Source of the DNA: Chloroflexota bacterium
Lineage (GTDB): Bacteria > Chloroflexota > Limnocylindria > Limnocylindrales > CSP1-4
NCBI GenBank assembly: GCA_040755495.1
Contig: JBFMAT010000014.1
Span: forward strand, 7,764-71,763
Direction: 5' to 3'
Length of the DNA: 64,000 nucleotides
Shown: positions 38,279 through 57,753 of the stretch, in pieces
How the letters are laid out: each line of letters begins with the position of its first letter
Position numbering within the stretch: the first letter of the stretch is position 1
Notes under the pieces: model-generated
Database searches by the model: none
The model's input: only the letters and a program-made list of their open reading frames with translations
What the model was told of the DNA's origin: nothing
Program-made: the position numbers and the translations under genes

Positions 38279-38317
38279 CCGGATAGGGCTCCTCGGTGCA
38301 CGGGGACGCCGGCTGGA

Positions 38318-38333
38318 TTGGAAGCGCTTCCAA
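38318..38333. promoter_or_regulatory. Perfect 16-bp palindrome TTGGAAGCGCTTCCAA (LacI-family operator candidate); second inverted repeat GACAACgcgGTTGTC at 38344-38358
   Basis: Located in the divergent intergenic region between the lacI-family gene start (38278) and the GH1 start (38437). The central CG is flanked by a TGGAA/TTCCA motif like LacI/GalR-type operators. Confidence 0.5.
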
Positions 38334-38436
38334 AGTAGACGTCGACAACGCGGTTGTCAAGCGTCAGAATGGACATCCGCGGTACGATGTGGACGCGCAA
38401 TCCGATGAGACCGCTTTCATTCGAGAGGAGCTGAGG

Positions 38437-42341: not shown

Positions 42342-43097
42342 TCAGCTCCCGACGCCTCGGGGCGCGCCAGGCAGCACGTGCGTCCGGGCCCCCGCGACAT
42401 CGACCCACAGGATGCTCGAGCCCGGCCACGGCATCGTCGAGGTGGTGAGCGCGGCGTAGGCGTCCCTCGTCCGGGCGGGGTAGGCCGCGCGGAACGTGTT
42501 CGGCAGCGCGCGCACGAGTGCCCGGGTCTCCGCCGTGGACCGGAGCAGCAGGAGCCGGGACGCGGGCGGCGGGGCGACGACGTCCGCCCACGGCCAACCG
42601 CGGGCCGACGGCAGTGCGTCCGCCTTCTCGCCGGCCCACCGCAGCTGCTGCTCGACGACCCGGAGCGAGCCGTGCCCCTCGCCGGCGACCAGCTGGTTCG
42701 TGCCGCGGTCCTGGAGGACGAGATCGACCACACCGCGAACCGGGCGATAGACAGCGACCTCGAGGCGTGCGATCCAGCGGACATCGAGGATCCCGAGCAG
42801 CGCCTCGATCATCCGGACCTGGACGTGATCGCGGACCCGTGGGCCGGTGGACTCGTAGAGGCGGAGCGACACGTCGCGACCGAGGGCGGTGGCGATGGCG
42901 ACCATCGCGTCGAGGCTTGGGTCGCGCTCCGCGCGCTCGATGCGGCGGAGGTGGGCGGGATCGAGGCCGGTGGCCCGGCCGAGCGCCCGCAGTGACAGGC
43001 CCGCGTCGAGCCGCGCCGCCCGGTACTGGTCACCCACCGTGCGGGCCATCGCCACCTGGCGGTCTGCGATCGTCCGTTCCAGCTCCGAGTTGCCCAT
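42342..43097 (-). CDS. XRE-family helix-turn-helix transcriptional regulator with C-terminal domain of unknown function
   Basis: RLDAGLSLRALGRATGLDPAHLRRIERAERDPSLDAMVAIATALG is an HTH_XRE. 251 aa. Confidence 0.65.
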   Translation of the reverse strand: MGNSELERTIADRQVAMARTVGDQYRAARLDAGLSLRALGRATGLDPAHLRRIERAERDPSLDAMVAIATALGRDVSLRLYESTGPRVRDHVQVRMIEALLGILDVRWIARLEVAVYRPVRGVVDLVLQDRGTNQLVAGEGHGSLRVVEQQLRWAGEKADALPSARGWPWADVVAPPPASRLLLLRSTAETRALVRALPNTFRAAYPARTRDAYAALTTSTMPWPGSSILWVDVAGARTHVLPGAPRGVGS

Positions 43098-43447
43098 GGT
43101 CCTGCCTCCCTGCCGGCGGGCGTGGACCCACAGTCAATGACATCGCGCATGGCTGCGGCTTATCGGGCTTTGGGGGCGGGTTCTCGCGGTTTCGGGGACC
43201 CATGGTCCACGGGATCGGGAATCACGGCGCGGCCGGGGGCCGGTCTCGCGGTCTCATGGACTGACAGTCCACGGCGGCGCCAGAGGGGCGGTGGCGGAGG
43301 GGCGGCCGGGCCAGAGGGCTGAGTGCGGCCGGGCCGAAGGGGCGGTGGCGGAGAGCGGTGAGCGCGGCGAACGGCCCGGTCGAACGGCGGCCGGCCCGGT
43401 CGAACGGCCCCGTCGACGAGCCGAGGGGCGAGCACCCGCCCCGGCGG

Positions 43448-44908
43448 CTACCCCTCGGGCACCCCGGGCAGGGCGCCCGTCAACCCGAACGGTGCCCCCG
43501 CCTCGCGGACGCGGTCGGCCATCGCGGCCACCACGGCCGGGTCCAGCTCCGGCAGGCGGTGGGTCGCCTCGATCTCCGCCACGCGGGCCCGGGCACGCCC
43601 GAAGGCGTCGAGGCCGCCGGCGTCGAGCCAGGCCCGCCGCGAGCTGCGGTCGATGATCCCGGACGGCAGGAACTGCTCGCCCCGGAACAGGCGCCGCGTG
43701 TCCTCCAGCTCCAGGAACCGGCCCTCGGGACCGGCCGCCTCGAAGAACGCCGTCGCGAGCGTCTCGGTCGGGGTGCCCACGCCGCGCAGCAGCCGCTGGA
43801 CCATGCCGATCGCATCCGCGTCGATGACCAGCTTCTCCGCGCTCTGGGCGAGCAGGAAGTCGAGCATCCCGGCCCCCGAGATCATGTCGATCCCGGCGAG
43901 GCCGCCGACGAGCGCCGTCATCCCGGTCTCGAGGCCGGCCTGCGCGTCGATCACCTTCGCGTCCGTCGCGCCCAGGTAGCCGTGGACCGGCAGGCCCAGC
44001 GACTTGCCCACGGCCGCGTACCCGGCGTCGATCAGCGCCGTCTCGATGGCGCCCATCGGCGTGGAGCCGGTCCGCATGTCCACGATCGTCGGGGCACCGC
44101 CCCACACGATCGGGCCGCCGGGCGCGGCGAGCTGGTGGAGGACGATGCCGGCCAGCGTCTCGGCGGCGTGCTGGACGATTGCCCCGACCAGGGTCACGGG
44201 CGCCGCCACGCCGGCCAGGGGCATGGAGATCAGCTCCGCCGGGACGTGCGCCCGACCGAGGTCGATGACGTTGCGGCAGGCGAACTCGGACCAGGTCAGC
44301 GGCGGCGACGGGCAGACGTCGAACACGGCCCGCGGGCGCTCGGCGAGCGCGTCCCGGCCGCCGGCGTCGATCGCGAGCAGCTCCAGCATCACGCCGGATC
44401 CCCGGGCGCTGAACGCCCCGGTCACGATCGGCTTGGACGAGTGGAGGAGCACCACGAACAGCCGGTACAGGTCGCCGATCTCGGTCGGCACGTCGTGGCA
44501 CACGACCGCCGTCGACACCGCGTCGTACGCGGGGAGCGCGTCCGCGACTTGGATCAGCCGGGCGAGGTCGGCGGCCTGCGACGTCCGGGTGTCGAGCGTC
44601 GCGGGGTCCAGCACGGCCACCCCGGACGAGCCGGGGTCGAAGTGGACGGCGCCCGTGCCGTAGCGGACGGCCGCACGCCCGGCCCGGTCGAACAGGTCGA
44701 ACGAGTGCGGGACGGTGTCCAGCGCCCGGCGGACCATCGCCTCGGGGATCGCGATCCGGTCCCCGGCCGCGGTGGCGCCGGCGCCGGTCAGCAGCGCGAC
44801 CGCCTCCGGCTCCTCGACCCGGATCCCGGGCCTGCGGAGCAGCTGCAGGGCCTCGTCGAGGATGCGCTCGATGAGGGCCGGATCGAGGAGCTCGAAGCGG
44901 GGCCGCAT
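43448..44908 (-). CDS. MttB-family (trimethylamine methyltransferase superfamily) non-pyrrolysine methyltransferase, paralog 1
   Basis: 486 aa, uninterrupted (no in-frame TAG), full-length MttB-like TIM-barrel sequence. The start ATG overlaps the upstream stop. Confidence 0.85.
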   Translation of the reverse strand: MRPRFELLDPALIERILDEALQLLRRPGIRVEEPEAVALLTGAGATAAGDRIAIPEAMVRRALDTVPHSFDLFDRAGRAAVRYGTGAVHFDPGSSGVAVLDPATLDTRTSQAADLARLIQVADALPAYDAVSTAVVCHDVPTEIGDLYRLFVVLLHSSKPIVTGAFSARGSGVMLELLAIDAGGRDALAERPRAVFDVCPSPPLTWSEFACRNVIDLGRAHVPAELISMPLAGVAAPVTLVGAIVQHAAETLAGIVLHQLAAPGGPIVWGGAPTIVDMRTGSTPMGAIETALIDAGYAAVGKSLGLPVHGYLGATDAKVIDAQAGLETGMTALVGGLAGIDMISGAGMLDFLLAQSAEKLVIDADAIGMVQRLLRGVGTPTETLATAFFEAAGPEGRFLELEDTRRLFRGEQFLPSGIIDRSSRRAWLDAGGLDAFGRARARVAEIEATHRLPELDPAVVAAMADRVREAGAPFGLTGALPGVPEG

Positions 44909-46443
44909 CAGCCGGCCCCGGCTGGAGCGCCCGGGGCGCCGGCCCCCGTGCCCGAGGCGCCGGCCGCCGCGCCGTCCAGTGCCCGTGCCTCGTGCGCGTC
45001 CACGAGCGCCGCGAGCTCCGCGTCGAGCGCCGGGTCCAGCCGCGGCGGCTCGTGCTCGCGGAGCAGCGTCCGGGCCCGCTCCAGCGCCGCCCGGTGCGGC
45101 GCGTCGGGGTCCTCCTCCCACTGGCCGTACGGCCGGCGATCCATGAACCGGGTCTGCCACAGCGAGCGCATGTGGGTCCGCGTGTGCGGCGACGTCAGGT
45201 ACTCGCCGCCCGGCCCGACCTCGCGGATGACGTCGAGCGCCAGGGCCTCGTCGTCGAGCGGGATGCCGCGCAGCATCGCCGCGACGATCCCGGCGATCTC
45301 CGTGTCCAGCAGCAACTGCTCGTAGGACCAGATCCGGGACCCGTGGAGCAGCCCGGCGCCCAGCAGCATGTCGGACCCGACCACGGAGGCCATGAACGCG
45401 GACAGGCCGTTCTCCACGCCGGCCTGCCAGTCGGGGCGCTTGGCGCCCGTGGCGTAGGCACCCATCGACAGGGGCACGTCGTAGAAGTCGGCCAGCTGGT
45501 TGGTCGCGGCGCCGAACAGGAAGTCCTCCGGGCCGCCGCCGGTGTAGGCGCCGGAGCGGAGGTCCATGGCGGTCTGGGCGGCCGCGTAGTACACGGGCGA
45601 GCCCGGGTAGGCGAGCTGCATCAGGGCCATCGCCGAGACGACCTCGGCGTTGCCGACGACCAGCGAGCCCGCGACGGTGGCCGGGCCGCTGAACGCGCAC
45701 GAGGCCATGGTCATGAACCCGACCGGGACCCCGTGTTCCGCGGCGACCAGCGCCGCCTCGATCGCCCCGCCGTCCTGGGCGAGCGGGCTGATCGTGCACT
45801 GCATCATCGACAGCACCGGCCGCTCGCGCAGCGCGGCGTGGCCGCCCGCGATCGCCGCCGCCATCTCGATCGCCGTACGCGCGTCCTCGGGCGTCACGAT
45901 GCTCTCGGTCTGGACGTGCTTGGACGAGTTGCGCCACACGGCGAGCACCTCGTCCAGCGAGCGGCGCTCCGGGGCCGCGTCCTGGGCCGACACCGCGACC
46001 CAGTGGAACGCGATCTCGGGCAGGGCATCGGCGACGCGCGCGATGTCGGCCACGTCCGCCAGGGCCGAGCGACGGCGCTCGCCCGTCCAGGCGTCGAGGA
46101 CCTCGATCGCGCAGCCGTCGGTGCCCAGGTGGACATGCCGGCCGTCGAGCGGCAGGTCGCGCGCCGGGTCTCGCGCGGCGAGCGTGTACGCGGCCGGGGC
46201 GCTGCGCAGCGCGGCCTCGATGACGTCGGCCGGCACGCGCACCACGGACGTGGCGCGGTCCACCGTCGCGCCGTGGGCCTCCCAGAGGTCCAGGGCGCGC
46301 GCCGACGGGAAGCGCACCCCGGTGGTCTCGATGACCGCAAGGGTGGCCTCGTGGATCCGGCGCACGTCGGCCGGGGACAGGACCTCGAGGCGCGGCCGGG
46401 CGACGGGACCGGCCTCGGTCCGGACGGGGGTGATCGTCGCCAT
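44908..46443 (-). CDS. MttB-family non-pyrrolysine methyltransferase, paralog 2
   Basis: 511 aa, uninterrupted, homologous to paralog 1 along its full length (for example LSPADVRRIHEATLAVIE vs LDPALIERILDEALQLL). Confidence 0.85.
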   Translation of the reverse strand: MATITPVRTEAGPVARPRLEVLSPADVRRIHEATLAVIETTGVRFPSARALDLWEAHGATVDRATSVVRVPADVIEAALRSAPAAYTLAARDPARDLPLDGRHVHLGTDGCAIEVLDAWTGERRRSALADVADIARVADALPEIAFHWVAVSAQDAAPERRSLDEVLAVWRNSSKHVQTESIVTPEDARTAIEMAAAIAGGHAALRERPVLSMMQCTISPLAQDGGAIEAALVAAEHGVPVGFMTMASCAFSGPATVAGSLVVGNAEVVSAMALMQLAYPGSPVYYAAAQTAMDLRSGAYTGGGPEDFLFGAATNQLADFYDVPLSMGAYATGAKRPDWQAGVENGLSAFMASVVGSDMLLGAGLLHGSRIWSYEQLLLDTEIAGIVAAMLRGIPLDDEALALDVIREVGPGGEYLTSPHTRTHMRSLWQTRFMDRRPYGQWEEDPDAPHRAALERARTLLREHEPPRLDPALDAELAALVDAHEARALDGAAAGASGTGAGAPGAPAGAG

Positions 46444-46445
46444 CG

Positions 46446-47111
<666 letters not shown>

Positions 47112-47171
47112 CGGTCTCTCCTCGTGGTCCGGGTCCCGGATGGTGGGTCGTAGTTGGGGATTGGCTGGGCG

Positions 47172-48627
47172 TCAGGGGATGGGCGTGGCGCGCATGGTGG
47201 CCTCGGCGCGCTCGAGGATGCCGGCGATGGCCGTCGCGGCCTCGCCGGGGAGTGGCGGCGGCTTGTGGGCCGCGAGCAGCTCGTCCACGCGGGCGGCCGC
47301 GCGCTCGCCCATCGTACGGGCACCCTTCGCGCGCCACGCGGAGTGGCTGAGCCGGTCGATCAGCGAGGGGTACCAGCGCTCCCGGTAGTGGGCGAGCGTG
47401 TGGTCCGCCTCGAGGAACGACCCGTCCGGGCCGAGCGCGTCGATGAGGTCCAGCGACAGCGTCTCGTCGTCGATCCGGACGGGCGCGATCGCCGCCCGGA
47501 TCCAGGCCGCGATCTCGTCGCAGATCACGAGCTGGGCGAGCGAGCCGGTCAGGCCGGACTCGAGGTAGCCGGAGTCGTGGAGCAGGTGACCGCCGGCCAG
47601 CGCGTCCACGAGCATCGTGAGCGCGGCCTCCGCCGCCGCCTGCTGGTCGACGACCTTGCTGTCGGCGCCGCCGGCGAGGCTGAACATCGGCAGCCCGTAG
47701 TGGTGTGCCAGCGATGGCGCCACGCCCCGGTGATCGGGCTCGGCGTAGGGGTCCACCATCGTCCGCAGGTCCAGCGCGTCACCGCCGAACCCCGGCACGA
47801 TGATCGGGGTGCCCTTCCGGACGAGCTGCGACAGGACGATCCCGACCAGCACGCCGGCCTGGTTGAGCGCCATGTTGCCCGCGGTCGTCACCGGGCCCGT
47901 CGTGCCGCCCGACGTCACCGGCACCCAGATCGCCGGCAGCCCGCGCGCCGCGAGGATCAGCAGCTTGCGCAGCGAGTCGCCGTTCTGGACGAGGCCCCGG
48001 GTCACGTTGACGTAGAGCGCGATCTGCGGCCGCTCGCGGAGCGCGTCCGGCCCGCCGGCCACCGCCTCCGCCATCGCGATCGCGTCCGCCATGGCGTCCA
48101 CGTCGTAGGTCACGACCACCAGCGGCTTGCTCGTCCGCTCCAGCATCACCGCCATCTGGCGCCGGTCGGCCATCGCCGGGTCCACGTCGGACGGCAGGAA
48201 CATCGACATCGCGAAGTCCATGTTGGGCAGCGCATCGACCAGCGCCATGCCATCGCGGACGTCGGACAGGACCGCGAGCCGGCGCTCCCCGGTGCGGTGG
48301 TCGAGCACGTTGAGGCAATCCGATCCCGGGCCGAAGAAGACGTTGTCGCCCTCCACGGCGAGCGCGGCGCGGCCCGCGCGGTCGTGGAGCGTGATCGAGC
48401 GGGGGGCGACCGAGAGCGCCCAGTCCACGAGCGACCCGGGCACGAACACGCGGCCGTCGTCGCCCACCCGGGCGCCCGCGCCGTGCAGCCGCTCGACGGC
48501 CTCGGCGTCGTGGAGCCGGGCCCCGGTCCGCTCCAGGATCGACACCGCGGCGTCGTGGAGGCGCGCGGAATCCGCCGGGGTCAACCGGTCGTAGCGCGGC
48601 GATCGGGACGCCGTCGGATCCGGGGCG
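47172..48627 (-). CDS. MttB-family non-pyrrolysine methyltransferase, paralog 3
   Basis: About 485 aa from the GTG at 48627 (GGAGG RBS 5 nt upstream), uninterrupted. N-terminus YDRLTPADSARLHDAAVSILE is homologous to the other two paralogs. Confidence 0.8.
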
Positions 48628-48770
48628 TGCAGGAGCACGGACGCCTCCCGCGAAGGGGTCGATGGCGTGCAGCGTCCCGCGTCCGGGCCCGCCCGCGATA
48701 GGGCGGAAGGTCCCCCCCGAAGGGTCCGACGGACCATCCGGCGTCGGGGCCGGCAGGCGAGACTGTCCCC

Positions 48771-50386
48771 CGATGCCCGACCTGGTCCACGGGCGCGAGC
48801 GACGTCCGCTCGTGTCCGGCCATACGCTGTTCGAGGAGGCCGACGAGCTGTCGGTCGTCGTCCCCGCGTCCTGCCAACGCCTCGGACGCTGTCACGAGTG
48901 CGTCGTCGAGGTGCGGGCGGGCGGCGACCTCCTCTCGCCCCGGACCGATGCGGAGGCATTCCTGAGCGGTGCCTTCCGCCTGGCCTGCCAGGCGCGGATC
49001 GAGCACACGGACGGCGACCTGGAGTTCAACGTCCTTCGCCGCCGGCTGCGCATCCTGCTGGCGCCCGAGGGCGAGACGGCCGACGTGGACCCGCCGGTGC
49101 ACCGCCGGGGGAATCGCGTCGTGCGCGACGGCGGCGTGGACCTGGGCACCTGGTTCGGGCGCCTGCTGGGCCTCGCCGTGGACGTGGGCACGACGACGAT
49201 CGTGCTTGAGCTGGTGGACCTCGAGACGGGCGAGACCGCGGCCTCGGCGGCGCTCGAGAACCCGCAGCGCTACGGCGGCAGCGACGTCATGAGCCGCATC
49301 TCGTACGAGGCGACGTTCCCGGGCCAGCTGCGCCAGTCGCTCCGGCGCGCGCTCAACCACGAGATCCGGCGGCTGTGCTCGATGCTGGGTGTTGACCGCC
49401 GGGCGATCGTCGAGGCGGTGCTCGTGGGCAACACCACGATGCGCGACCTCGCGTTCGGGCTGGACGTCGCGCCCATCGGCCGGCTGCCGTACCGGAGCAC
49501 CACGGAGGCGGCGGCGAGGGTCGTCGGCGCGCGCAGCACCCGCGTCGTCAAGCACGCCTACGAGCTGGGGCTGCTGATGCACCCACGGGGCCGGGTCATC
49601 GGGGCGCCGATCATCGCCAGCCACGTCGGGGCGGACGCGGCCGCGGACCTGGTGGCCGTGGGGGCGATCCACCACCGCGAGCCGTTCCTGCTGATCGACA
49701 TCGGGACCAACACGGAGGTCATCGCGAGCGACGGCCGGCGGATGGTCGCCGCCTCCAGCCCCGCCGGGCCCGCGTTCGAGGGTGGCGGCGTGCGACACGG
49801 CATGGCCGGAGCGGACGGGGCGATCGAGGCCGTCCGGCTCGTGGACGGGCGGCTCGAGACGCGTACGATCGGCGGCGTGGAGCCCGAGGGGATCTGCGGG
49901 TCCGGCCTGGTCGACCTGCTGGCGGTGCTGCGCCGGTCGGGGAAGCTGACCGCGCGCGGCGGCTTCGCGGACGGCACCCGCGAGACCGAGGTCGTGCCAG
50001 CGCGCGGGATCGTGCTCACGACGGCGGACGTCGCGCACCTGGCGGTGGCCAAGGCGGCCACGGCCGTGGGGCAGCGGGTCCTGCTGCGGACCCTGGGCCT
50101 CGCCCCGTCGGACCTGCGCCACGTGTACCTCGCCGGCGGCTTCGCCAACGCGCTCGACGTCTCCGCCTCGATCGACATCGGGCTGCTGGTGCCGGTGGAG
50201 CCGTCCCGGGTCGTGCGGGCCGGCAACGCGTCGGTCGCCGGGGCCAAGGCCTTCCTGCTGTCGCGCCGCCGGCGCGCGGAGCTCGAGTCGGCGGTCCGCC
50301 GGATCGACCACGTGGAGCTCGAGTCCGAGCCGGACTTCTTCGACCTGTTCACCGACGGCTGCATGTTCGAGCCGATCACCGCCTGA
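48771..50386 (+). CDS. Corrinoid reductive activation protein (RACo/RamA-like: N-terminal 2Fe-2S ferredoxin + ASKHA ATPase)
   Basis: CQRLGRCHEC ferredoxin-type Cys cluster, then a DVGTTTIVLELVD sugar-kinase/Hsp70/actin-fold phosphate-1 motif. About 538 aa. Confidence 0.75.
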
Positions 50387-50395
50387 GGGACCCCG

Positions 50396-51955
50396 ATGTC
50401 GCTCCGCCAGACCCTCCTCGCCACTACCGACTTCGCCACCGTGGTGGAGCTCGTGCCCTGGGCGGGCGAGCTCGACGACGCGCGCGGCCAGCGCCCGCTC
50501 AAGATGGCCGTCGACCTCGCCGGCGACCCGCGGATCACCGCGCTCTCGATCACCGACAACGCCGGCGGCCACGCGCGCCTGTCGCCCGACGCCCCGGCGG
50601 AGCCGGTCGTGGAGCTGGGCCACGACGTGATCGTCCACGTCGCCTGCCGCGACCGGAACCGCAACGGGCTCCAGAGCCTGGGCTGGGACCTCCTGAGCCG
50701 GGGCCTGACCACGGTCCTCGCCGTGTCGGGCGACTACCCGGTCGAGGGGTTTGACGGGCTGTCGAAGCCGGTGTTCGACGTGGACTCGGTCGGCCTGCTG
50801 GCCCTGTACCGCGAGCTGGGCGAGGTCGCGATCGCCCGGGCGACGGCCGACGGCGTGCCGGAGCCGGCACAGCGCGCCTTCTTCCTCGGCTGTGCCGTGG
50901 ACAACATCAAGCGCTTCGAGCGCGAGCTCATCCCGCAGTACCTGAAGCTGGCGCTCAAGGTCCGCAGCGGCGCCGACTTCGTCATCAGCCAGGTGGGCTA
51001 CGACGCCCGCAAGCAGGACGAGCTGCTGCGCGCGATGCGCCGCGACGGCCTCGCGATCCCGGCCATCGCCAACGCGTACATCCTGGACCGCGGGGTCGCC
51101 CGCGCCTTCCACGCCGGCCGGGTGCCGGGCTGCGTCGTGAGCGACGAGCTGCTGGCGCTGGTCGAGCGACGGGCCGCGGGCCCGGACAAAGGCCGGGCGT
51201 TCTTCCTCGAGCTCGCGGCCAGGCAGCTCGTGGTCGCCCGGGGTCTCGGCTACCGCGGCATCTACCTGTCCGGCCACCGCGACGCGACCGAGATCGGCCG
51301 GGTGCTGGAGTACGCGGAGGCGTTCGCCGACGGCGACTGGCGAGACCTGGTGCCGGACGTGACGTTCCCCCTGCCGGGCTCGTTCCACCTGTTCGAACGC
51401 GACCCGGCGACGGGCCTCAACACGGACGAGGTCTCGCGGGCCTACCGGCGCTCGCTGGAGCCGGCGGCGCGGCGGCGGGCGCGGGCGGGCGTCGACCCGT
51501 TCTACAAGGTCAACCGGGTGGTCCACGATCGCGTGTTCTCGAGCGGGACGCCCGGGTTCCGGTTCTGGGGCTCGGTCTACGGGCGCGTCGAGCGCGCGCA
51601 CCTGGCCAAGCCGCTGCACGTGTTCGAGCAGGCGGTCAAGGTGCCGCTCTACGACTGCCGGGACTGCGGCGACTGCTCGCTGCCGGACCTCGCCTACCTG
51701 TGCCCCGAGTCGCACTGTGCGAAGAACCAGCGCAACGGGCCCTGCGGCGGCTCGCACGACGGCCGGTGCGAGGTGGGCGACCGGCCCTGCGTGTGGGCAG
51801 AGGCCTACCGGCGGCTCAAGCCGTACGGCGAGGAGCTCGCGATGCTCGAACGCCCGCCGATCCTCCAGGACAACGCCCTCCGGCGGACCTCCGCCTGGGC
51901 GAACACGTTCCTGGGCCGCGACCACTTCGCCAAGCAGAAAGGACCCCGATCGTGA
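50396..51955 (+). CDS. metF: 5,10-methylenetetrahydrofolate reductase (MetF) fused to Cys-rich MTHFR C-terminal domain
   Basis: An N-terminal TIM-barrel MTHFR-like domain of about 300 aa, then a C-terminus with CRDCGDC...CPESHCAKNQRNGPCGG...C. Confidence 0.75.
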   Translation: MSLRQTLLATTDFATVVELVPWAGELDDARGQRPLKMAVDLAGDPRITALSITDNAGGHARLSPDAPAEPVVELGHDVIVHVACRDRNRNGLQSLGWDLLSRGLTTVLAVSGDYPVEGFDGLSKPVFDVDSVGLLALYRELGEVAIARATADGVPEPAQRAFFLGCAVDNIKRFERELIPQYLKLALKVRSGADFVISQVGYDARKQDELLRAMRRDGLAIPAIANAYILDRGVARAFHAGRVPGCVVSDELLALVERRAAGPDKGRAFFLELAARQLVVARGLGYRGIYLSGHRDATEIGRVLEYAEAFADGDWRDLVPDVTFPLPGSFHLFERDPATGLNTDEVSRAYRRSLEPAARRRARAGVDPFYKVNRVVHDRVFSSGTPGFRFWGSVYGRVERAHLAKPLHVFEQAVKVPLYDCRDCGDCSLPDLAYLCPESHCAKNQRNGPCGGSHDGRCEVGDRPCVWAEAYRRLKPYGEELAMLERPPILQDNALRRTSAWANTFLGRDHFAKQKGPRS

Positions 51956-53007
51956 GGCCTGACCGTTCCGGCACCCCGTTCCTCGTGGTCGGGGAGAACA
52001 TCCACGCCACGCGCGTGCTCAAGCGGGGCGGCCGCCATGCCGCGGAGCTCGAGGACGGGAGCGTGGGCATCGCGTTCGAGGCCGCCGACGGCTCGCGCGG
52101 CGTCCTGCCGGTCCACCCGGACGTCGCCGCGACCCGCGACTTCGGCGTGGGCAAGGTCAAGCACGTGGCGAGCGCCATCCGGTGGGGCCTCGACGGCGGC
52201 GCGCACGCGGACCAGGCGGCGGCCTACATCCGATCGATGGCGGCCCGGCAGGAGGCCGCGGGGGCGGACTGGCTGGACCTCAACGCGGACGAGGTGGCGT
52301 CCGATTCCGCCATCCGGGCGCGGGCGATGGCCTGGCTGGTCGGGGTGGTCGAGGCGACGGCGGCGGTGCCCGTCTCGATCGATTCATCGGACGTGGCCGT
52401 GCTCGCGGCCGGCGTCGCGGCGTCCACGCAGCCCGCGGGACGGCTGCTGCTCAACTCGGCGTCCGTGGAGCGCCCGGAGGTGCTGGAGCTGGCCGCGGCG
52501 ACCGGCTGCGCGGTGATCCTCGCGGCCAGCGGCAGGGGCGGCATGCCGGCCAACGCCGAGGAGCGGGTCGCCAACGCGATCGCCCTGGTCGAGGAGGCCG
52601 TCGCGCGCCAGGTCCCCCCGGCGTTGCTGTACGTGGATCCGCTGGTGCTGCCGGTGGCCGTGGAGCCCGACGCCCCGTCGCACGTGCTCGAGGCGGCTCG
52701 CCAGCTGCGCGCCGAGTACGGCGACACGATCCACCTCACGGGCGGCCTGTCCAACGTGTCGTTCGGGCTGCCCGAGCGGCGCCTGCTCAACGACGTGTTC
52801 ATCGACCTGGCCGCCGAGGCCGGGATCGACGGCGGGATCATCGACCCGGTCGCCTCGGACCTGGCCCGGGTCTTCGGGCAGGACCGCGCGAGCGAGCCTT
52901 ACCGGCTGGCCGCGGACCTGCTGCTGGGCCGCGACCCGTTCGGCGGCGCGTACGTGGCCGCGTTCCGCGAGGGCCGGCTGGCAGCGGAGGGCGCGGCCGC
53001 AGGCTGA
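51952..53007 (+). CDS. Pterin-binding methyltransferase (MtgA/AcsE/MtrH-like methylcorrinoid:tetrahydrofolate methyltransferase)
   Basis: GTGA overlap with metF. About 351 aa with a DHPS-like TIM-barrel character (LVVGENIHATR...LDLNAD...YVDPLVLPVA). The family call is from architecture and context. Confidence 0.7.
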   Translation: MRPDRSGTPFLVVGENIHATRVLKRGGRHAAELEDGSVGIAFEAADGSRGVLPVHPDVAATRDFGVGKVKHVASAIRWGLDGGAHADQAAAYIRSMAARQEAAGADWLDLNADEVASDSAIRARAMAWLVGVVEATAAVPVSIDSSDVAVLAAGVAASTQPAGRLLLNSASVERPEVLELAAATGCAVILAASGRGGMPANAEERVANAIALVEEAVARQVPPALLYVDPLVLPVAVEPDAPSHVLEAARQLRAEYGDTIHLTGGLSNVSFGLPERRLLNDVFIDLAAEAGIDGGIIDPVASDLARVFGQDRASEPYRLAADLLLGRDPFGGAYVAAFREGRLAAEGAAAG

Positions 53008-53058
53008 GGCCGCCATGCGTCGCCGGAGGCCAACGCCAGGGGCTGGCGCCGGGCTTGC

Positions 53059-53808
53059 CTACGTCGCGGGCACCGCCTTCACCACGCCGTCGTCGTGGCT
53101 CATCGCGAGCCGCTCGCCGGGCCGGAGCACCAGCACGTCGTCGTCCCACTCGCCGTCGAGCAGGCGGCGGAGCAGGACCAGGCTGCCCTCGACCCGCTCG
53201 AACGCCCAGCCCCGCCGCTCCGCCTGCTCGCGGGCCGTGGCCTCGGCGGTGGCTTCGTCGGTCACGCCCAACGAGATGAACGCGCCGCGCCGGTAGTGGC
53301 TGCGCCAGGCGCCCATGACCTCCATCAGGTAGTCCGCGTTGTCCTCGCCGTACCTGGCCACGTACTCGGCCCGGAGGGCGTCCATGTCGTCCTCCGTGTC
53401 ACCCGCGCCCAGGCCGCCGTCGCGTCGACCGTCGGGCGCGCCGGACGGCCGCTGCAGCTGGTCGGCGACGTACCAGTAGGTGGGGTCGCGGCCCGCGGTC
53501 TCCGCCGCGTACCGCTCGCGCGCCCCGAGGAACAGCGTGATGCAGTCGTGGGCGCGCGGCAGGACCACGGGGACCTCGCGGGCCTCGATGCCGGCCGTGG
53601 CGCCACCGCACAGCCCATAGCCCAGGACGATCGCGTCGTAGCCCGGCGGTACGCCGTCGATCTCCGCCTGCAGCCGGGTCCGCAGGTCGCGCGGATCGAC
53701 ATGCAGGCCGCGTGGCAGCAGCGACAGGTCCACCACGTGGGGCGAGCGCGCCGCACACAGGTACACGGGTCGCGCGAGCACGTCGCAGGCGATCGCATGG
53801 AGCCGCAT
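53059..53808 (-). CDS. DUF1638-family protein
   Basis: 249 aa from the ATG at 53808. This family is commonly found next to mttB-family/corrinoid genes; that is recalled, not verified here. Confidence 0.6.
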   Translation of the reverse strand: MRLHAIACDVLARPVYLCAARSPHVVDLSLLPRGLHVDPRDLRTRLQAEIDGVPPGYDAIVLGYGLCGGATAGIEAREVPVVLPRAHDCITLFLGARERYAAETAGRDPTYWYVADQLQRPSGAPDGRRDGGLGAGDTEDDMDALRAEYVARYGEDNADYLMEVMGAWRSHYRRGAFISLGVTDEATAEATAREQAERRGWAFERVEGSLVLLRRLLDGEWDDDVLVLRPGERLAMSHDDGVVKAVPAT

Positions 53809-53913
53809 CGCGAGATCGTAGCGCCCGATCCGGTCGCTTTGCCCCTGCCATCCGGGCGCCGGGTGTGGCACGGTGGACGCACGCCCGAATCCGTCGGGCG
53901 GGGAGGACGGTCG

Positions 53914-54384
53914 ATGGATGCACAGGACGCCGGTCCCGGGCCGGCCGGAGTCACGGAGCGCTGGGTGCGGATGGAGCGCCGCCTGGACGCCTCGGCGGAG
54001 CGCGCCTTCCGCGCCTGGACGGACCCGGAGGAGCTCGCGCGCTGGCTGCCGGAGCGCATCGAGGGCGGCCTCGCAGTCGGGGCGCGGAGCGTGCTCGTGT
54101 GGTCCGGGGCCCGCGTCTGGTGGGATGTCCTCGAGGTCCATCCCAGCGACACGTTCCTGTTCCGCCGGCCGTGGCTGCCCGACGAGTCGATCGTGACCAC
54201 GGTCCGGGTCGCGGTGCACCCGGTGGGCTACGGCAGCCGGGTGGAGCTCGAGGACGGGCCGTTCCCGATCGACACGCCCGCGGGACTGGACGCCTGGGCG
54301 GCGGCGATCGCGGCCTGGGCCGAGGCGCTGACGATGCTCCGGGCGCACCTGGACTCCAGCGTCGACGTCCGCCAGCGGCGGTAG
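53914..54384 (+). CDS. SRPBCC / Aha1-like (activator of Hsp90 ATPase homolog) domain protein
   Basis: WVRMERRLDASAERAFRAWTDPEELARWL is typical of the AHSA1/SRPBCC N-terminus. A GGGAGGA RBS lies 7 nt upstream. Confidence 0.7.
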   Translation: MDAQDAGPGPAGVTERWVRMERRLDASAERAFRAWTDPEELARWLPERIEGGLAVGARSVLVWSGARVWWDVLEVHPSDTFLFRRPWLPDESIVTTVRVAVHPVGYGSRVELEDGPFPIDTPAGLDAWAAAIAAWAEALTMLRAHLDSSVDVRQRR

Positions 54385-54393
54385 CGCGCGGCG

Positions 54394-54747
54394 ATGGACG
54401 CCCGGCTGGTCGCCTTCGGCCTGGTCGAGGTCGAGGGCAGGCGCTATGCCCATGACGTGGTCATCGAACGGGGGATCGTGCGCAAGCGCCGGAAGGGGCC
54501 GTCGAAGCCGTACCGCGACCGGTACGGCCACACGCCGCTGTCGGCGAACGAGGCAATCCCCTGGCACGGGCGCGGCCTGGTGGTGGGGACGGGTGCCGAG
54601 GGCCTGCTGCCGGTCATGCGCGAGGTGCTCGACGAGGGGCGACGGCGCGGCATCGAGGTGATCGCCGTCCCGACCGAGGAGGCGTGCCGTCTGCTCCGCG
54701 ACCTGCCGCCGGAGCGGGCGAATGCCGTGCTCCACGTCACCTGCTGA
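54394..54747 (+). CDS. Mth938-like small conserved protein
   Basis: 117 aa. AFGLVEVEGRRYAHDVVI...LVVGTGAEGLLPVMREV resembles the Mth938/DUF498 fold family. Confidence 0.5.
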   Translation: MDARLVAFGLVEVEGRRYAHDVVIERGIVRKRRKGPSKPYRDRYGHTPLSANEAIPWHGRGLVVGTGAEGLLPVMREVLDEGRRRGIEVIAVPTEEACRLLRDLPPERANAVLHVTC

Positions 54748-54817
54748 TCGGGTCGCCTCCTGGGCCGGCGCGGGCGGCCCGGCACCTGCCGCACCCGCCC
54801 GCGACCCGCCGGCACCC

Positions 54818-55981
54818 TCAGCCGCGCCGGGGGTACGTCCCGTAGGCCACCGCCTCGTCCACCATCGCCAGCACGTTCTCCGGCGGCACGTCACCCATCA
54901 CGGTGTGCACGGCGCCCAGCATCAGGCCGCCGCCCGGCCCCAGCGTGTCGATCACGCGCCGGACCTCCGCCCGCACCTCGTCCACGGTGCCGTGGGGGAG
55001 CACGCGGTGGGTGTCCATCCCGCCGCAGAACACGAGCCGATCGCCGAACCGCCGCTTGAGCCCCGCGAAGTCGGACATGCCGCCGGCCGAGGCCTGCACG
55101 GGGTTGAGCACGTCGACGCCGATCTCCACGAAATCGTCGAGCAGGTCGAACACGTCGCCGTCGGTGTGGAACACCACCTTCGCCGTCGTCCGCTCGCGGA
55201 TGAACGCGATGTAGTCGGCGTGGACGGGCTTGAGCATCCGGCGGTACATCGCCGGCGACATCAGCAGCCCCACCTGCGAGCCCAGGTCGTCACCGATCTT
55301 GATCATGTCGATCAGATCGCCGCACTGGCGCAGGAACCCGTCCATGATCCCCTTGCACACGCCCTGGATCTTCCACAGCAGCGCCTCGGCGAACTCCGGC
55401 TCCGCCGCGAGGTTGAGCAGGAAGCCGTCGGTGCCCTGCATCGCGAACGCGCGCTCGAGGGGGAACAGGAGCCACGGGGTCGCGAGGCTCGCATGCCGGT
55501 TCTCGTCCCGGAGCCGCTGCGCCTCCGCCCGCACGCCCTCGAACCGCGTGGGATCGGCGACGTCCGGCCACGGGTAGGCCTCGATCTCCTCGAGCGTCGT
55601 CGCCTCCGCCATCGGGTGGACGCCCGGGAACCAGGTGCCGGGCGAGGCCTCCAGCTGGCCGCTGCCCCAGTCGTCGATGAACGGCGAGTGCGGCTCGCGG
55701 GCGGCGTTGCGGGCGCGGGTCGCCGCCGGGAAGCGGTCCAGCACCCCGCGGACGTCGGCGTGGAGCCGCTCGTACGTCGCCTCGTCGAGGGCCGCGGTGC
55801 CGAGCTCCGGCCAGTCGTAGATGTAGCGGTCCGGCGCCTCGATCCCGGCCAGCCGCTTGAGACCCCGGTAGGTGGACATCTTGATGCCGGTCGCGTTGCT
55901 CGGGCCGAGCACGATCGGCACGCGGTCGGGCGTCTCGTGGTCGAGGACGGCGAGCACGCGCTCGCGCGGGGTCAGCGGCAT
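54818..55981 (-). CDS. Uroporphyrinogen-decarboxylase (URO-D) family protein (MtaA/MtbA-like methylcobamide methyltransferase family)
   Basis: 387 aa with URO-D-like TIM-barrel motifs (PIVLGPSNATG, VVFHTDGDV, VDVLNPVQ). Confidence 0.75.
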   Translation of the reverse strand: MPLTPRERVLAVLDHETPDRVPIVLGPSNATGIKMSTYRGLKRLAGIEAPDRYIYDWPELGTAALDEATYERLHADVRGVLDRFPAATRARNAAREPHSPFIDDWGSGQLEASPGTWFPGVHPMAEATTLEEIEAYPWPDVADPTRFEGVRAEAQRLRDENRHASLATPWLLFPLERAFAMQGTDGFLLNLAAEPEFAEALLWKIQGVCKGIMDGFLRQCGDLIDMIKIGDDLGSQVGLLMSPAMYRRMLKPVHADYIAFIRERTTAKVVFHTDGDVFDLLDDFVEIGVDVLNPVQASAGGMSDFAGLKRRFGDRLVFCGGMDTHRVLPHGTVDEVRAEVRRVIDTLGPGGGLMLGAVHTVMGDVPPENVLAMVDEAVAYGTYPRRG

Positions 55982-56217: not shown

Positions 56218-57753
56218 ATGCATCGCATTCCGGGGGCGCTGCTGCTATTGCCGGCCGTATTGCTGGCCGCGGCATCGGCGATCACGAGCCGCCTGTCGTT
56301 CGAGCCGGTCGCGCCGATCGCGCTCGCCGGTGCGGGCGCGGCGTGGGCGCTGGGCGTCGCGGCCTGCGCGTTCATGGTGCGCCACGAGGTCCGGGCGCTG
56401 GCCGCCCACGCGGCGGCGATCGCCGACGGTGCGGGCACCACCATCGAGGACCCGCGCCCGTTCGGCCTCGTGGCGCCGGTGGCGACCGAGGTGGCCCGGA
56501 TCGCGGCGACGCTCGAGGACGCGACCGAGGCGGCTACCACGGACCGGCTGACCCGGGTCGCGAACCGCCCCACGATGCTGGCCCGCCTGTTCCAGGAGGC
56601 GGAGCGGGCCGCGCGCTATGGCCGCCCCCTCGCCCTCGCCTTCCTGGACATCGACCACTTCAAGGCGGTCAACGACACCTGGGGCCACGAGGTCGGCGAC
56701 GACGTCCTGCGGCGCGTCGCCGAGGTCCTGCGCGAGCACTGCCGCCAGTCCGACATGGTCGCCCGGTATGGCGGCGAGGAGTTCGTCATCGTCCTCCCGG
56801 ACACGACGGTGGACGACGCCACGGAAGTGGCGGAGAAGCTGCGCCTGCTGGTGCTGAAGCAGCGCATCCCGACCGGGACCCCGGAGGAGATCGGCGTCAC
56901 GATCTCGATCGGCGTCGCGGGCGGCCAGGGCGCCAGCCTGCGCGTCGACCAGCTGATCCGCGACGCGGATGCCGCGATGTACTCGGCGAAGTCGCTGGGC
57001 CGGAACCAGACGTTCGTGTTCGCCGAGGTGGACGACGACAGCGCCCGGATCCCCCGGGCGTCGGTCTCGGCGGACGGGCGGGCCCGGGCCGCGGAGGTGG
57101 GCGACCTGGCACGCCACGCCGCCGAGGAGGCGCTGGCCGCGATCGTCGCCCCGCTGCCGCACTACCGCGGCAAGCCCTCGTCGCTGATCGCGGCCATCGC
57201 GGTCGCGCTGGCCCGGCGGCTCGAGCTCCCGGATCGCGAGGTGGAGCGGATCCGCGTCGCATCGCTGCTCCACGACATCGGCAAGGTCGGCGTCCCGGGG
57301 CCGATCCTCGAGAAGCCGGGGCCGCTCTCGCCCGAGGAGTGGCAGTCCGTCGTCCAGCACCCCAAGATCGGGCAGGTGATCATCGACCAGGTGGCCGCGG
57401 TCCGCGACGCCGGGGCGATCATCCTCCACCACCACGAGCGCTACTCCGGGCACGGGTACCCGTACGGGCTGCGTGGCTCGGACATCCCGCTCGGCGCCCG
57501 GATCGTCGCCATCGCCGACGCCTACGACGCGATGATCCACGACCGGCCCTACCGGGCGGCGATCAGCCACGAGCAGGCCATCATCGAGCTCCGCGAGCAC
57601 GCCGGGCTCCAGTTCGACCCCGAGCTGGTCGGCCTGTTCTGCGCCCTGTACGCCGACCGGGCGCCGGTCCCGGACCCGTCGCTGCTGATCGGGCAGCGCC
57701 GGACCGGCCGGGCGCGTGGGACGGCACGCGATCGGCGCGCGGCATCCGCGTGA
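56218..57753 (+). CDS. Membrane-anchored GGDEF diguanylate cyclase fused to HD-GYP phosphodiesterase
   Basis: N-terminal TM segments; RYGGEEF active-site motif; HD-GYP motifs LLHDIGK and HHHERYSGHGYPYGL. Confidence 0.8.
   Translation: MHRIPGALLLLPAVLLAAASAITSRLSFEPVAPIALAGAGAAWALGVAACAFMVRHEVRALAAHAAAIADGAGTTIEDPRPFGLVAPVATEVARIAATLEDATEAATTDRLTRVANRPTMLARLFQEAERAARYGRPLALAFLDIDHFKAVNDTWGHEVGDDVLRRVAEVLREHCRQSDMVARYGGEEFVIVLPDTTVDDATEVAEKLRLLVLKQRIPTGTPEEIGVTISIGVAGGQGASLRVDQLIRDADAAMYSAKSLGRNQTFVFAEVDDDSARIPRASVSADGRARAAEVGDLARHAAEEALAAIVAPLPHYRGKPSSLIAAIAVALARRLELPDREVERIRVASLLHDIGKVGVPGPILEKPGPLSPEEWQSVVQHPKIGQVIIDQVAAVRDAGAIILHHHERYSGHGYPYGLRGSDIPLGARIVAIADAYDAMIHDRPYRAAISHEQAIIELREHAGLQFDPELVGLFCALYADRAPVPDPSLLIGQRRTGRARGTARDRRAASA

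Follow-up and report, generated by a model that had tools for sequence, protein, structure and literature searches.

What would three MttB-superfamily methyltransferases grouped around a single corrinoid protein act on in an uncultured soil Chloroflexota lineage, to which this cluster belongs, and where would the methyl groups go? At a probability of roughly 0.7, we read the locus as a corrinoid-dependent methyl-harvesting system in which three distinct MttB-type methyltransferases I (MT Is) share one corrinoid protein (CoP) and the methyl groups pass to folate. Gene calling by codon-position GC and codon log-odds in the window (the whole stretch of 64,000 nucleotides analysed) reproduced the map of the first-pass annotation; the features of the locus are:

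42342..43097, minus strand: XRE-family HTH regulator (251 aa; HTH_3 and HTH_31 matches, residues 22-79)
43448..44908, minus strand: MttB1, non-Pyl MttB-superfamily MT I, "His-type" pocket (486 aa; PF06253)
44908..46443, minus strand: MttB2, non-Pyl MttB-superfamily MT I, "Ser-type" pocket (511 aa; PF06253)
46446..47111, minus strand: CoP (221 aa; B12-binding and B12-binding_2)
47172..48638, minus strand: MttB3, non-Pyl MttB-superfamily MT I, "Phe-type" pocket (488 aa, GTG start; PF06253)
48697..48763, plus strand: conserved cis element, spacer and nAnACT box, upstream of the RACo gene
48773..50386, plus strand: RACo/RamA-like ATP-dependent reductive activase (537 aa; Fer2, Raco_middle and RACo_C_ter)
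50396..51955, plus strand: methylene-THF reductase (MetF) with a fused Cys-rich DUF5981 (MetV-like) tail (519 aa; MTHFR and DUF5981)
51952..53007, plus strand: pterin-binding methylcorrinoid:THF methyltransferase (MT II; Pterin_bind)
53059..53808, minus strand: DUF1638 protein (249 aa; PF07796)
~53914..54384, plus strand: SRPBCC/AHSA1-fold protein (AHSA1 and Polyketide_cyc2 matches)
54394..54747, plus strand: DUF498/Mth938-like protein (PF04430)
54818..55981, minus strand: UroD-superfamily (URO-D) protein (387 aa; URO-D)

The minus-strand methyltransferase and CoP genes have the structure of an operon: the MttB2 stop overlaps the MttB1 start (TGATG), the CoP/MttB2 junction is TGAcgATG, and the 60-nt gap from MttB3 to CoP carries a GGAGAG ribosome-binding site. 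The first-pass annotation had described three full-length MttB-superfamily genes flanking a corrinoid protein with a DxHxxG motif, and we recovered this arrangement: PF06253 matched each MttB over its full length (E of 5e-83, 8e-97 and 4e-83 for MttB1, MttB2 and MttB3; profile positions 29-492 of 500 for MttB1), and the three genes contained no internal stop, in-frame TAG included. Its lengths of 486 and 511 aa stood, but the third protein is 488 aa long from a GTG start, not 485. Divergent transcription of RACo, MetF with its Cys-rich tail and the pterin methyltransferase also agreed with the gene calls and Pfam matches. The RACo start was placed at 48773 because the orthologs are 537 aa long; a longer ORF from 48662 was rejected.

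The view of the MttBs as non-pyrrolysine enzymes was upheld not only by the lack of in-frame TAG, but also by Ala, Ala and Gly at the Pyl column (Ala in MttB1). The paralogs are 28-32% identical to MtgB, 26-31% to Pyl-MttB and 31-34% among themselves, and each falls into an orthogroup of its own, in which the residues at the substrate-contact columns are invariant and differ from those of the other two; the orthogroup of MttB3 is widespread among Chloroflexota MAGs. For MttB2, the best PDB sequence matches are to MtgB (9yce/2qne, 250 bits), and its AF2 model (pLDDT 71.7) superposes on 9yce with TM of 0.77/0.82, with low confidence precisely at residues 291-304 and 328-372, the loops of the active site.

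The rest of the component set that had been listed (corrinoid protein, pterin MT II, ATP-dependent activase and MetF) is all present as well. CoP scored 220 bits against TIGR02370 (cut-off 215), matched both B12-binding families above their cut-offs and carries DIHEIG at residues 103-108; its best PDB matches were 1y80 (200 bits) and MttC (7xcn_M, 192 bits), versus 115 bits for MetH. The pterin protein matched Pterin_bind above cut-off (E 7e-21) and PRK07535 at 185 bits, below the 259-bit cut-off; against the PDB it scored 110 bits to 4o0q/4o1e/4o1f, 91 to AcsE and 62 to MetH. By sequence score both proteins are thus closer to methylotrophic components than to MetH, and the earlier caveat that they might be methionine synthase fragments found no favour in these comparisons. 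The MetF gene, with conserved synteny, matched MTHFR (41.7 bits) and DUF5981 (87 bits) above cut-offs and encodes eight Cys within residues 421-465. RACo matched its three domain families above cut-offs, has Cys34/40/43/72 and scored 227 bits to 3zyy/4c1n. The GYGLCGG and RAHDC motifs of DUF1638 (PF07796, E 2e-37) are invariant across the 34 loci that conserve it.

In the pathway that we infer from these components, each of the three MT Is would bind a methylated small molecule and transfer a single methyl from it to the one CoP that all three share, in its Co(I) state. The pterin-binding MT II would move the methyl from methyl-Co(III) CoP to tetrahydrofolate, and the MetF-DUF5981 fusion would then oxidise methyl-THF, yielding methylene-THF that could enter C1 oxidation or assimilation. 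When the cobalt is adventitiously oxidised to Co(II), the RACo/RamA-type activase, probably with the help of DUF1638, would spend ATP and an electron to restore Co(I). By analogy with Ruegeria, the methyl flux could also be reversed or dual.

What the MT Is bind was approached through the pocket of MtgB, whose activity requires R312, Y97, H348 and F356; the R312L variant abolishes activity, and this carboxylate-clamp Arg is conserved in five characterised non-Pyl enzymes, MtgB, MtcB, MtpB, MtyB and MthB (PMC13080624). At the R312 column we found His in 45/45 MttB1 orthologs, Ser in 52/52 MttB2 orthologs and Phe in 24/24 MttB3 orthologs, and Arg in just 3 of the 115 cluster representatives nearest MttB1. 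Y97, R312 and F356 are all absent from the three MttBs in an alignment at ~30% identity, where anchoring is free of indels only for the R312 and Pyl columns; H348 may be kept in MttB3, the Y97 and H348 columns moving by one position from alignment to alignment. The S. meliloti homolog 4YYC retains Y97, R312 and H348. A His at the Arg column, as in MttB1, could still bind an acid group.

Several readings compete with this one. On the reading that follows from the first-pass annotation, the three paralogs would, like their counterparts in Desulfitobacterium and Eubacterium, demethylate quaternary amines already known as substrates: glycine betaine, proline betaine, carnitine and gamma-butyrobetaine, which that annotation named, or phosphocholine. 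In its favour, the locus has the same set of components, the closest solved relative of MttB2 is the glycine betaine enzyme, soil is rich in betaines, and environmental studies routinely take non-Pyl MttB genes for mtgB (PMC6081815). However, identity to MtgB is no higher than to Pyl-MttB, and the residues missing from the pocket, invariantly so across the orthologs, include the very Arg whose replacement kills MtgB and which all five characterised enzymes share. Moreover, no BCCT or ProU transporter, choline kinase (MthK) or dimethylglycine/sarcosine gene was found in the window or related loci, the scan of window genes agreeing with the earlier remark on betaine transporters, and no conserved transporter or substrate-modifying gene adjoins the cluster in related loci. 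We therefore hold this reading to be quite unlikely: because the clamp Arg is absent from all three MttBs, the substrates are, as far as aligned residues can tell, most likely not these five compounds bound in the known way. Far less probable still is the database annotation at face value, by which the MttBs would be trimethylamine:corrinoid methyltransferases (MttB proper). JGI and NCBI label homologs "trimethylamine--corrinoid protein Co-methyltransferase" and TIGR02369 is the sole NCBIfam match, but its scores of 327-436 bits (346 for MttB1) all fall under the 525-bit equivalog cut-off, and the Pyl position is Ala or Gly without TAG. TAG is an ordinary stop here, ending MttB1 itself and 12 of the 59 called genes, and a weak PYLIS_3 match (19 bits, E 3.5) is accounted for by coding homology.

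A further alternative concerns the partners: CoP, the pterin methyltransferase, RACo and DUF1638 might (also) serve as a split methionine synthase. In Phaeobacter and Ruegeria, MtgC and MtgD serve methionine synthesis and betaine demethylation alike (PMC12478193; PMC5764234), and ~70% of marine genomes with MtgBCD are without MetH. On the other hand, neither the window nor the neighbourhood of the cluster in related loci has a gene for homocysteine-binding PF02574 (MtgE), the cluster is centred on MttB genes and MetF, and CoP and the pterin protein match methylotrophic proteins far better than MetH. Such a function is possible but unlikely, and methyl harvesting to folate is the reading we carry forward.

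The first-pass annotation had taken Firmicute and deltaproteobacterial systems as the model, but among described systems the aerobic MtgBCD/MetF2/RamA/DUF1638 set of Ruegeria and Phaeobacter comes closest (PMC12478193); there the components, MetF2, the RamA-like protein and DUF1638 included, are induced or required (PMC12478193; PMC5764234). The parts found in Ruegeria pomeroyi and Phaeobacter inhibens are those seen here: MT I of the MttB family, often as several paralogs, a corrinoid protein that stands alone, a pterin methyltransferase, a MetF paralog dedicated to the system, an activase of the Fer2 plus DUF4445/RACo type and DUF1638. The genes of the aerobic system are clustered in other taxa too, like those here. 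The differences are: i) Proteobacteria there, Chloroflexota here; ii) no MtgE/homocysteine module nearby here; iii) MetF fused to DUF5981 here; and iv) Tyr/Arg/His betaine residues kept in 4YYC (the only alphaproteobacterial MttB homolog compared), but not in the three MttBs. Desulfitobacterium hafniense MtgB-MtgC-MtgA (2QNE/9YCE; PMC13080624) shares the TIM barrel, the lack of pyrrolysine, the adjacent corrinoid protein and a pterin MT II; here, in contrast, three paralogs surround one corrinoid protein at the modest identity given above, with Y97, R312 and F356 replaced in all three and H348 replaced or, in MttB3, possibly kept. Eubacterium limosum MtpB/MtcB/MtyB/MthB, with MtqC/MthC, MtqA/MthA and RamQ, similarly combine substrate-specific MttB paralogs with one corrinoid/THF route and an ATP-dependent activase (PMC12155760; PMC8604678), but their described substrates are all acidic quaternary amines and R312 is retained throughout, and no MthK-like kinase is found here. 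Methanosarcina Pyl-MttB/MttC (7XCL/7XCN) are akin in superfamily and fold, and in the match of CoP to MttC, but differ in the pyrrolysine codon, in coenzyme M rather than THF as acceptor, and in identity (26-31%).

DUF1638 had been listed as accessory together with the SRPBCC, Mth938-like and URO-D genes. Since the closest architecture is the aerobic MtgBCD set with MetF2, RamA-like protein and DUF1638, DUF1638 is therefore a core part, presumed by analogy to be a partner in corrinoid reactivation; the genetic evidence for its role with a RamA-like activase comes from Phaeobacter and Ruegeria (PMC12478193; PMC5764234). The SRPBCC/AHSA1 and DUF498/Mth938-like proteins are local to the lineage and not conserved parts of the cluster: the former adjoins it in only 4-5 of the closest loci, and the latter (PF04430, 32.8 bits versus a cut-off of 33) was found only in L001-L003 among related loci. 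The URO-D protein matched URO-D (E 2e-22), had no PDB sequence match, and its AF2 model (pLDDT 90.5) is nearest the M. mazei methyltransferase 4ay7 (TM 0.65/0.73), then HemE. It thus has a fold in common with UroD-superfamily MT I systems (MtvB/OdmB O-demethylases, haloalkane CdmB/MecE, MtaA), which likewise use a corrinoid protein, pterin MT II, activase and DUF1638-type protein (PMC13222342, PMC9768040), but its family signal is very weak (TIGR01463 mtaA_cmuA, 53 bits versus a cut-off of 235). The gene adjoins the cluster in ~18 Limnocylindria loci; its membership in the system is doubtful because elsewhere in Chloroflexota, in lineages that include Anaerolineae and Caldilineales MAGs, orthologs at 67-69% identity neighbour Bmp-type ABC transporters, and in those other classes no corrinoid genes lie near them.

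Upstream of RACo, a conserved cis element of ~45 nt (GAYAGGGCGGAAGGTCCC...GACCATCCGG, 48697-48742, plus strand) is followed by a 17-nt spacer and an invariant nAnACT box (48758-48763), 9 nt ahead of the RACo ATG. Its position and orientation are constant in 25 genome loci and ~16 metagenome contigs; 97% of cells would allow pairing, but a compensatory change is seen at one pair only. No Rfam family matches the element, and none reached gathering score across the window, in line with the earlier statement that no B12 riboswitch is visible. It is a candidate operator or RNA leader. The XRE-family protein, whose ortholog lies downstream of MttB1 in ~19 related loci, is by its position a candidate regulator of the cluster.

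The locus had been called an island in an actinobacterium-like genome, and neither description survived. The gene order DUF1638<>Pterin-MetF-RACo<>[MttB3]-CoP-MttB2-MttB1 is preserved in ~40 related MAG loci and GC content equals that of the flanks; the nearest loci are Chloroflexota MAGs, the two closest bearing the labels uncultured Anaerolineaceae and Chloroflexi RBG_16_72_14, the remainder being mostly Ca. Limnocylindria, in whose MAGs corrinoid methyltransferase genes have been noted before (PMC11264602). Only about half of the related loci have MttB3, whereas MttB2 and MttB1 are near-obligate neighbours (adjacent in 48/52 loci) that form a conserved core and may share a class of compound or cooperate. 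Thus the system that these Chloroflexota carry is of a known kind, but the three enzymes that would bind its substrates are without the betaine-binding residues of their known relatives.

Gene calling by codon-position GC and a codon log-odds score, with starts set by hand, placed three MttB-superfamily paralogs (MttB1, MttB2 and MttB3), a corrinoid protein (CoP), an ATP-dependent activase (RACo) and their associated genes on both strands of the window, all cluster assignments being backed by Pfam and NCBIfam profiles.

Genes and conserved element of the methyltransferase cluster (window positions)
43448-44908, minus strand: MttB1, 486 aa
44908-46443, minus strand: MttB2, 511 aa
46446-47111, minus strand: corrinoid protein CoP, 221 aa, between MttB3 and MttB2
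47172-48638, minus strand: MttB3, 488 aa, GTG start
48697-48742, plus strand: conserved element of ~45 nt, with core GAYAGGGCGGAAGGTCCC at 48697-48714 and running on to ...GACCATCCGG at about 48742
48773-50386, plus strand: RACo
50396-51955, plus strand: MetF fused to DUF5981
51952-53007, plus strand: pterin-binding protein
53059-53808, minus strand: DUF1638 protein
beyond the DUF1638 gene and before the URO-D gene: SRPBCC protein and DUF498/Mth938-like protein
54818-55981, minus strand: URO-D family protein

A longer RACo frame starting at 48662 was ruled out, as RACo orthologs are 537 aa long. The gene structure proposed in the first-pass annotation was largely borne out: i) the three MttB genes are full-length, PF06253 running end to end on each (E = 5e-83, 8e-97 and 4e-83 for MttB1, MttB2 and MttB3 respectively; profile positions about 26-498 of 500); ii) none contains an in-frame amber codon or any other internal stop, and TAG is the stop of MttB1 and of 12 of the 59 genes in the window; iii) the tight junctions are TGATG (a stop/start overlap) for MttB2/MttB1 and TGAcgATG for CoP/MttB2; iv) the B12-binding protein carries its DxHxxG motif as DIHEIG at residues 103-108; and v) the divergent activator, MetF with its C-terminal domain and pterin methyltransferase all lie on the plus strand with profile support. 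Its lengths of 486 and 511 aa stood, and the 485 aa of the third paralog became 488 aa from the GTG start. A GGAGAG ribosome-binding site lies in the 60-nt gap ahead of the corrinoid gene.

The three paralogs are genuine members of the MttB superfamily. MttB2 scored 250 bits against MtgB, the glycine betaine methyltransferase of Desulfitobacterium hafniense (2QNE/9YCE), 225 bits against the pyrrolysine (Pyl)-containing MttB (7XCL) and 186 bits against the S. meliloti protein 4YYC. The fold was compared via Foldseek for MttB2 alone, using an AF2 model whose pLDDT is only 71.7 and lowest in the active-site loops: the match to 9yce had E 2.5e-32 and TM 0.77/0.82, and TM was 0.78/0.81 to 7xcl and 0.75/0.80 to 4yyc, so that the TIM-barrel fold of MttB/MtgB is predicted for MttB2. 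In the comparison set (MtgB, Pyl-MttB and 4YYC, rebuilt from HMMER alignments and aligned with the window proteins), identity to MtgB and to Pyl-MttB was 26-32%, and that among the three paralogs 31-34%. By this measure none of the three appears to be orthologous to a characterised enzyme.

Trimethylamine methyltransferase MttB proper was rejected as an identity for the three: there is no in-frame UAG, the Pyl column holds Ala in MttB1, Ala in MttB2 and Gly in MttB3, and the scores against TIGR02369, the MttB equivalog, were all below its cut-off (327-436 vs 525 bits). An Rfam match to PYLIS_3 at 43870-43969 (minus strand; 19 bits, E 3.5) starts exactly at the MttB1 codon aligned with the pyrrolysine codon and represents coding homology, not a pyrrolysine insertion element. 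The mec/cdm haloalkane systems were also set aside as MttB relatives, those enzymes being of the UroD superfamily.

The substrate pocket bears on which compounds these enzymes might accept. In MtgB the quaternary nitrogen is held by Y97 and F356 and the carboxylate by R312 and H348, and the R312L substitution abolishes activity; conservation of R312 in MtcB, MtpB, MthB and MtyB is, for the E. limosum enzymes, taken from the same study and not from our own alignment (PMC13080624). In a pairwise-scale alignment to MtgB, where the R312 column is anchored (no indels between a conserved P and D/G-x-K) and the Y97 and H348 columns are alignment-sensitive (moving one position between alignments), the columns Y97/R312/H348/F356 read S/H/S/L in MttB1, C/S/L/S in MttB2 and D/F/H/G in MttB3. 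Thus none of the MtgB residues Y97, R312 and F356 was found in any of the three paralogs, and H348 is replaced in MttB1 and MttB2 and may be kept in MttB3. In particular, all three lack an Arg equivalent to R312, the acid-group clamp of MtgB, MtpB, MtcB, MtyB and MthB, whereas S. meliloti 4YYC keeps Y97, R312 and H348. Moreover, the R312 column is invariant within each orthogroup: His in 45 of 45 MttB1 orthologs, Ser in 52 of 52 for MttB2 and Phe in 24 of 24 for MttB3. An exhaustive HMMER search of 1.84 billion cluster representatives, with MttB1 as the query, returned 6261 relatives at E<=0.001 (1239 at E<=1e-30); among the 115 full-length representatives from the best 150 of these 6261 matches, Arg occupied the R312 column in only three, and His, Gln, Phe and Trp dominated it. 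The three enzymes therefore belong to extensive parts of the superfamily that are uncharacterised and in which the acid clamp is missing, and the pocket of each paralog is under strong purifying selection. The missing clamp and the invariant pocket columns together argue against the substrates first proposed (glycine betaine, proline betaine, carnitine and butyrobetaine), so that known betaines appear disfavoured for all three paralogs, and equally against the habit of taking genes of this kind for "mtgB" (PMC6081815).

All 57 loci recovered by scanning species-representative genomes with MttB2 were Chloroflexota MAGs, which replaces the earlier impression of an actinobacterium-like genome. 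The closest locus (98% identical) is labelled uncultured Anaerolineaceae and the second (94%) "Chloroflexi bacterium RBG_16_72_14", most others being labelled Ca. Limnocylindria/Limnocylindrales or "uncultured Chloroflexia" (Microflora Danica soil survey). The host lineage (RIF-CHLX, Ellin6529) is uncultured, and a MAG survey found corrinoid methyltransferase genes to be common in Ca. Limnocylindria (PMC11264602); clusters like this one are widespread in the lineage, carry generic annotations and have already drawn notice in MAG surveys. Via tblastn with the window proteins, the order [UROD]-DUF1638<>Pterin-MetF-RACo<>[MttB3]-CoP-MttB2-MttB1-[HTH] was found in about 40 of the 57 loci, with MttB3 in about half of those with the conserved order, and CoP-MttB2-MttB1 reached Anaerolineales at 55-65% identity. 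The flanks are syntenic as well (DUF6855, DUF6812, a two-component system and tyrosine phenol-lyase), and GC stays at 68-78% along the whole window, with no shift in composition where the cluster lies. Uniform GC and class-wide synteny reject the cluster as a horizontally acquired "island".

When the genes of about 60 loci were clustered and their Pfam contexts checked, no recurrent transporter or substrate-modifying neighbour emerged; the sole recurring neighbours were the chromosome-synteny genes DUF6855, DUF6812 and tyrosine phenol-lyase. In 22 related loci the tyrosine phenol-lyase gene (21092-22504, plus strand; TIGR02618 766 bits vs a 721 cut-off) accompanies the methyltransferase cluster in synteny, a linkage that reflects chromosome synteny with no obvious functional link, and more than 20 loci have DUF6855 and DUF6812 genes as conserved neighbours. 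Flanking the cluster are genes for a GGDEF plus HD-GYP protein (56260-57753, plus strand) and the DUF6855 protein (58560-58964, plus strand). As initially noted, no BCCT or ProU transporter came up among the window genes scanned: the only transporter set near the cluster, which is not a betaine system, is an ABC transporter of the Opp type (SBP_bac_5, two permeases and two ATPases). It lies in a region at 31571-40736 that also encodes a LacI regulator, GH1 and a GH130 phosphorylase and resembles a locus for the use of mannosides or beta-glucosides. Elsewhere in the window, 22561-28030 (plus strand) is a leucine/isovalerate catabolism block (enoyl-CoA hydratase, carboxyltransferase, biotin carboxylase with BCCP, and HMG-CoA lyase). 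A tRNA-Val(AAC) called by ARAGORN at 17561-17638 (minus strand) is probably false, lying inside a plus-strand Lys-5,6-aminomutase alpha-like gene (17205-18803), and Rfam found no tRNA in the window.

The remaining components match those of known corrinoid systems. CoP scored 200 bits to 1Y80, 192 to MttC and 115 to MetH, and exceeded the TIGR02370 cut-off. The pterin-binding protein, a methylcorrinoid:THF methyltransferase (MT II), scored 110 bits to 4O0Q/4O1E/4O1F, which a later paper used as the CH3-H4F-bound MT II template, followed by AcsE (91) and MetH (62). The better scores of both proteins to these systems than to MetH speak against methionine-synthase fragments, the alternative raised at first pass. 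RACo matched Fer2, Raco_middle and RACo_C_ter, scored 227 bits to 3ZYY and has ferredoxin Cys at 34/40/43/72, giving it the 2Fe-2S plus ASKHA ATPase architecture of RACo/RamA activases. Like the aerobic MtgBCD-type system of Ruegeria and Phaeobacter, the cluster combines an MttB substrate:corrinoid methyltransferase (MT I), a stand-alone corrinoid protein, a pterin methyltransferase, a MetF paralog, a RamA-like activase and DUF1638 (PMC12478193), and these six components are syntenic in about 30-40 loci. In that aerobic system, MttB-family proteins (up to seven paralogs per genome), MetF2, RamA and DUF1638 are all induced on N-osmolytes (PMC12478193). Furthermore, a RamA-like Fer2+DUF4445 protein and a DUF1638 protein, which co-occur phylogenetically, are both required for the split methionine synthase of Phaeobacter inhibens (PMC5764234).

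Since the parts list of the aerobic system is the conserved core here, DUF1638 is a core component and not an accessory one as previously listed; of the other genes on that accessory list, SRPBCC and Mth938 were confined to the closest relatives among the 57 loci (tblastn), and URO-D does not count as a secure part. The DUF1638 motifs GYGLCGG (C67) and RAHDC (H87, D88 and C89), invariant in 35 sequences, might make up a metal or redox centre bearing on the part proposed for DUF1638 in reactivating the corrinoid. Homology and conserved context make the general mechanism well supported: MT I would methylate CoP, MT II would transfer the methyl group from CoP to yield methyl-THF, on which MetF would act, and RACo and DUF1638 would carry out ATP-dependent reactivation of CoP. 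Neither the window nor the regions flanking the cluster in relatives contained a homocysteine-binding PF02574 (MtgE) gene; the system may nonetheless serve methionine synthesis as well, in a dual role.

There are MT I enzymes of the UroD superfamily that work with corrinoid proteins, and the URO-D gene was considered as an extra MT I. Its product is a distant UroD-superfamily member (TIGR01463 53 bits vs a 235 cut-off) with no match in a PDB sequence search, and its AF2 model (pLDDT 90.5) best resembles the M. mazei methyltransferase 4AY7, with HemE almost equal. Conservation of the protein is remarkably high, identity between MAGs of Limnocylindria, Anaerolineae and Caldilineae being 67-94%; outside Limnocylindria its ortholog always adjoins a Bmp-type (PF02608) ABC transporter (three contexts), and no corrinoid genes lie next to it in these three. 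The sub-cut-off score and the lack of conserved corrinoid linkage outside Limnocylindria give no evidence of MtaA/CmuA-type membership, and the gene context in other Chloroflexota classes weakens the role of an extra MT I. The transporter context without corrinoid genes is the reason for not counting URO-D as a secure part, and its link to the cluster may be only positional. One ortholog outside Limnocylindria also adjoins a purine nucleoside phosphorylase gene (loci compared: L063, L065, L066 and L067). In another related locus (L008, about 1-1900), a second corrinoid-protein gene, 54% identical to the window CoP, directly follows URO-D, the only hint of a corrinoid partner.

MttB2 and MttB1 are tightly linked: among the 52 loci offering enough room, 48 have the MttB1 ortholog directly after the MttB2 ortholog, with stop and start codons that overlap. 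The pair persists from Limnocylindria to Anaerolineales, occurring also without the corrinoid gene in one locus (L060) and beside Hdr and NiFe-hydrogenase genes in one Anaerolineae MAG. This suggests that the pair is a functional unit, acting as a heteromer or in consecutive steps.

The region between the divergent operons carries the ~45-nt element, which is followed by a 17-nt variable spacer and an invariant nAnACT box (48758-48763) located 9 nt before the RACo ATG; no Shine-Dalgarno sequence precedes this ATG. In 25 genome loci, and in about 16 metagenome contigs besides, the element has the same position and orientation, irrespective of the presence of MttB3. The element itself matches no Rfam family. 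Exact non-cluster matches to its 18-mer in metagenomes lie inside long ORFs and are due to chance, and none matches Rfam. At the Rfam gathering score no cobalamin, THF or SAM riboswitch was found in the whole window, in agreement with the B12 riboswitch reported missing at the outset, and permissive thresholds (E<=5-10) yielded no riboswitch in the cluster, the 200-nt promoter region or the other instances of the element. The element could be a structured RNA leader: drawn as a hairpin, it has 97% of cells paired, but compensatory change is seen at just one of the ten pairs, together with some G-U pairing. It is equally readable as an inverted DNA repeat, GGAAGGTCC-N19-GGACCATCC. A consensus promoter/terminator scan is uninformative in this 74% GC DNA; because the -10-like box is placed for a leaderless RACo transcript, we consider it likelier that two divergent promoters share an operator or activator site here than that the element is an RNA leader. 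If the element is such an operator, RACo would be leaderless, and we infer the XRE regulator downstream of MttB1 (42342-43097) to be a candidate binder. The 350-nt gap between MttB1 and this regulator (43098-43447) contains short direct repeats, gggccgttcgaccgggcc... and ccgccaccgcccct....

A more novel reading, to which we assign a probability of roughly one in four, is that MttB2-MttB1 would form an obligate unit acting on a methylated compound other than an acidic quaternary amine and regulated via the ~45-nt element upstream of the activase operon. The unit would be either a heteromeric MttB or a pair of enzymes for two consecutive demethylation steps; a heteromer would be analogous to the MtgB homodimer, in which the C-terminal arm completes the active site of the partner subunit. 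If true, this would represent a new substrate class for the MttB superfamily.

To our knowledge, only six substrates are known for the thousands of proteins in this superfamily. Metagenome surveys label any non-Pyl MttB a "TMA" or "glycine betaine" methyltransferase (PMC6081815, PMC11264602). The present locus yields three orthogroups that are well defined and widely conserved, in an uncultured lineage abundant in soil and freshwater. All three orthogroups fail the residue test for these labels; as they come with their own corrinoid protein, MT II and activase, they are practical expression targets. Identification of their substrates would overturn no current concept. The main gains are the residue evidence against MtgB/MttB equivalence, the near-obligate pairing of MttB2 with MttB1 and the element conserved in the promoter region; with the substrates known, turnover of methylated (C1) compounds and B12 demand in soil would be better read from genomes.
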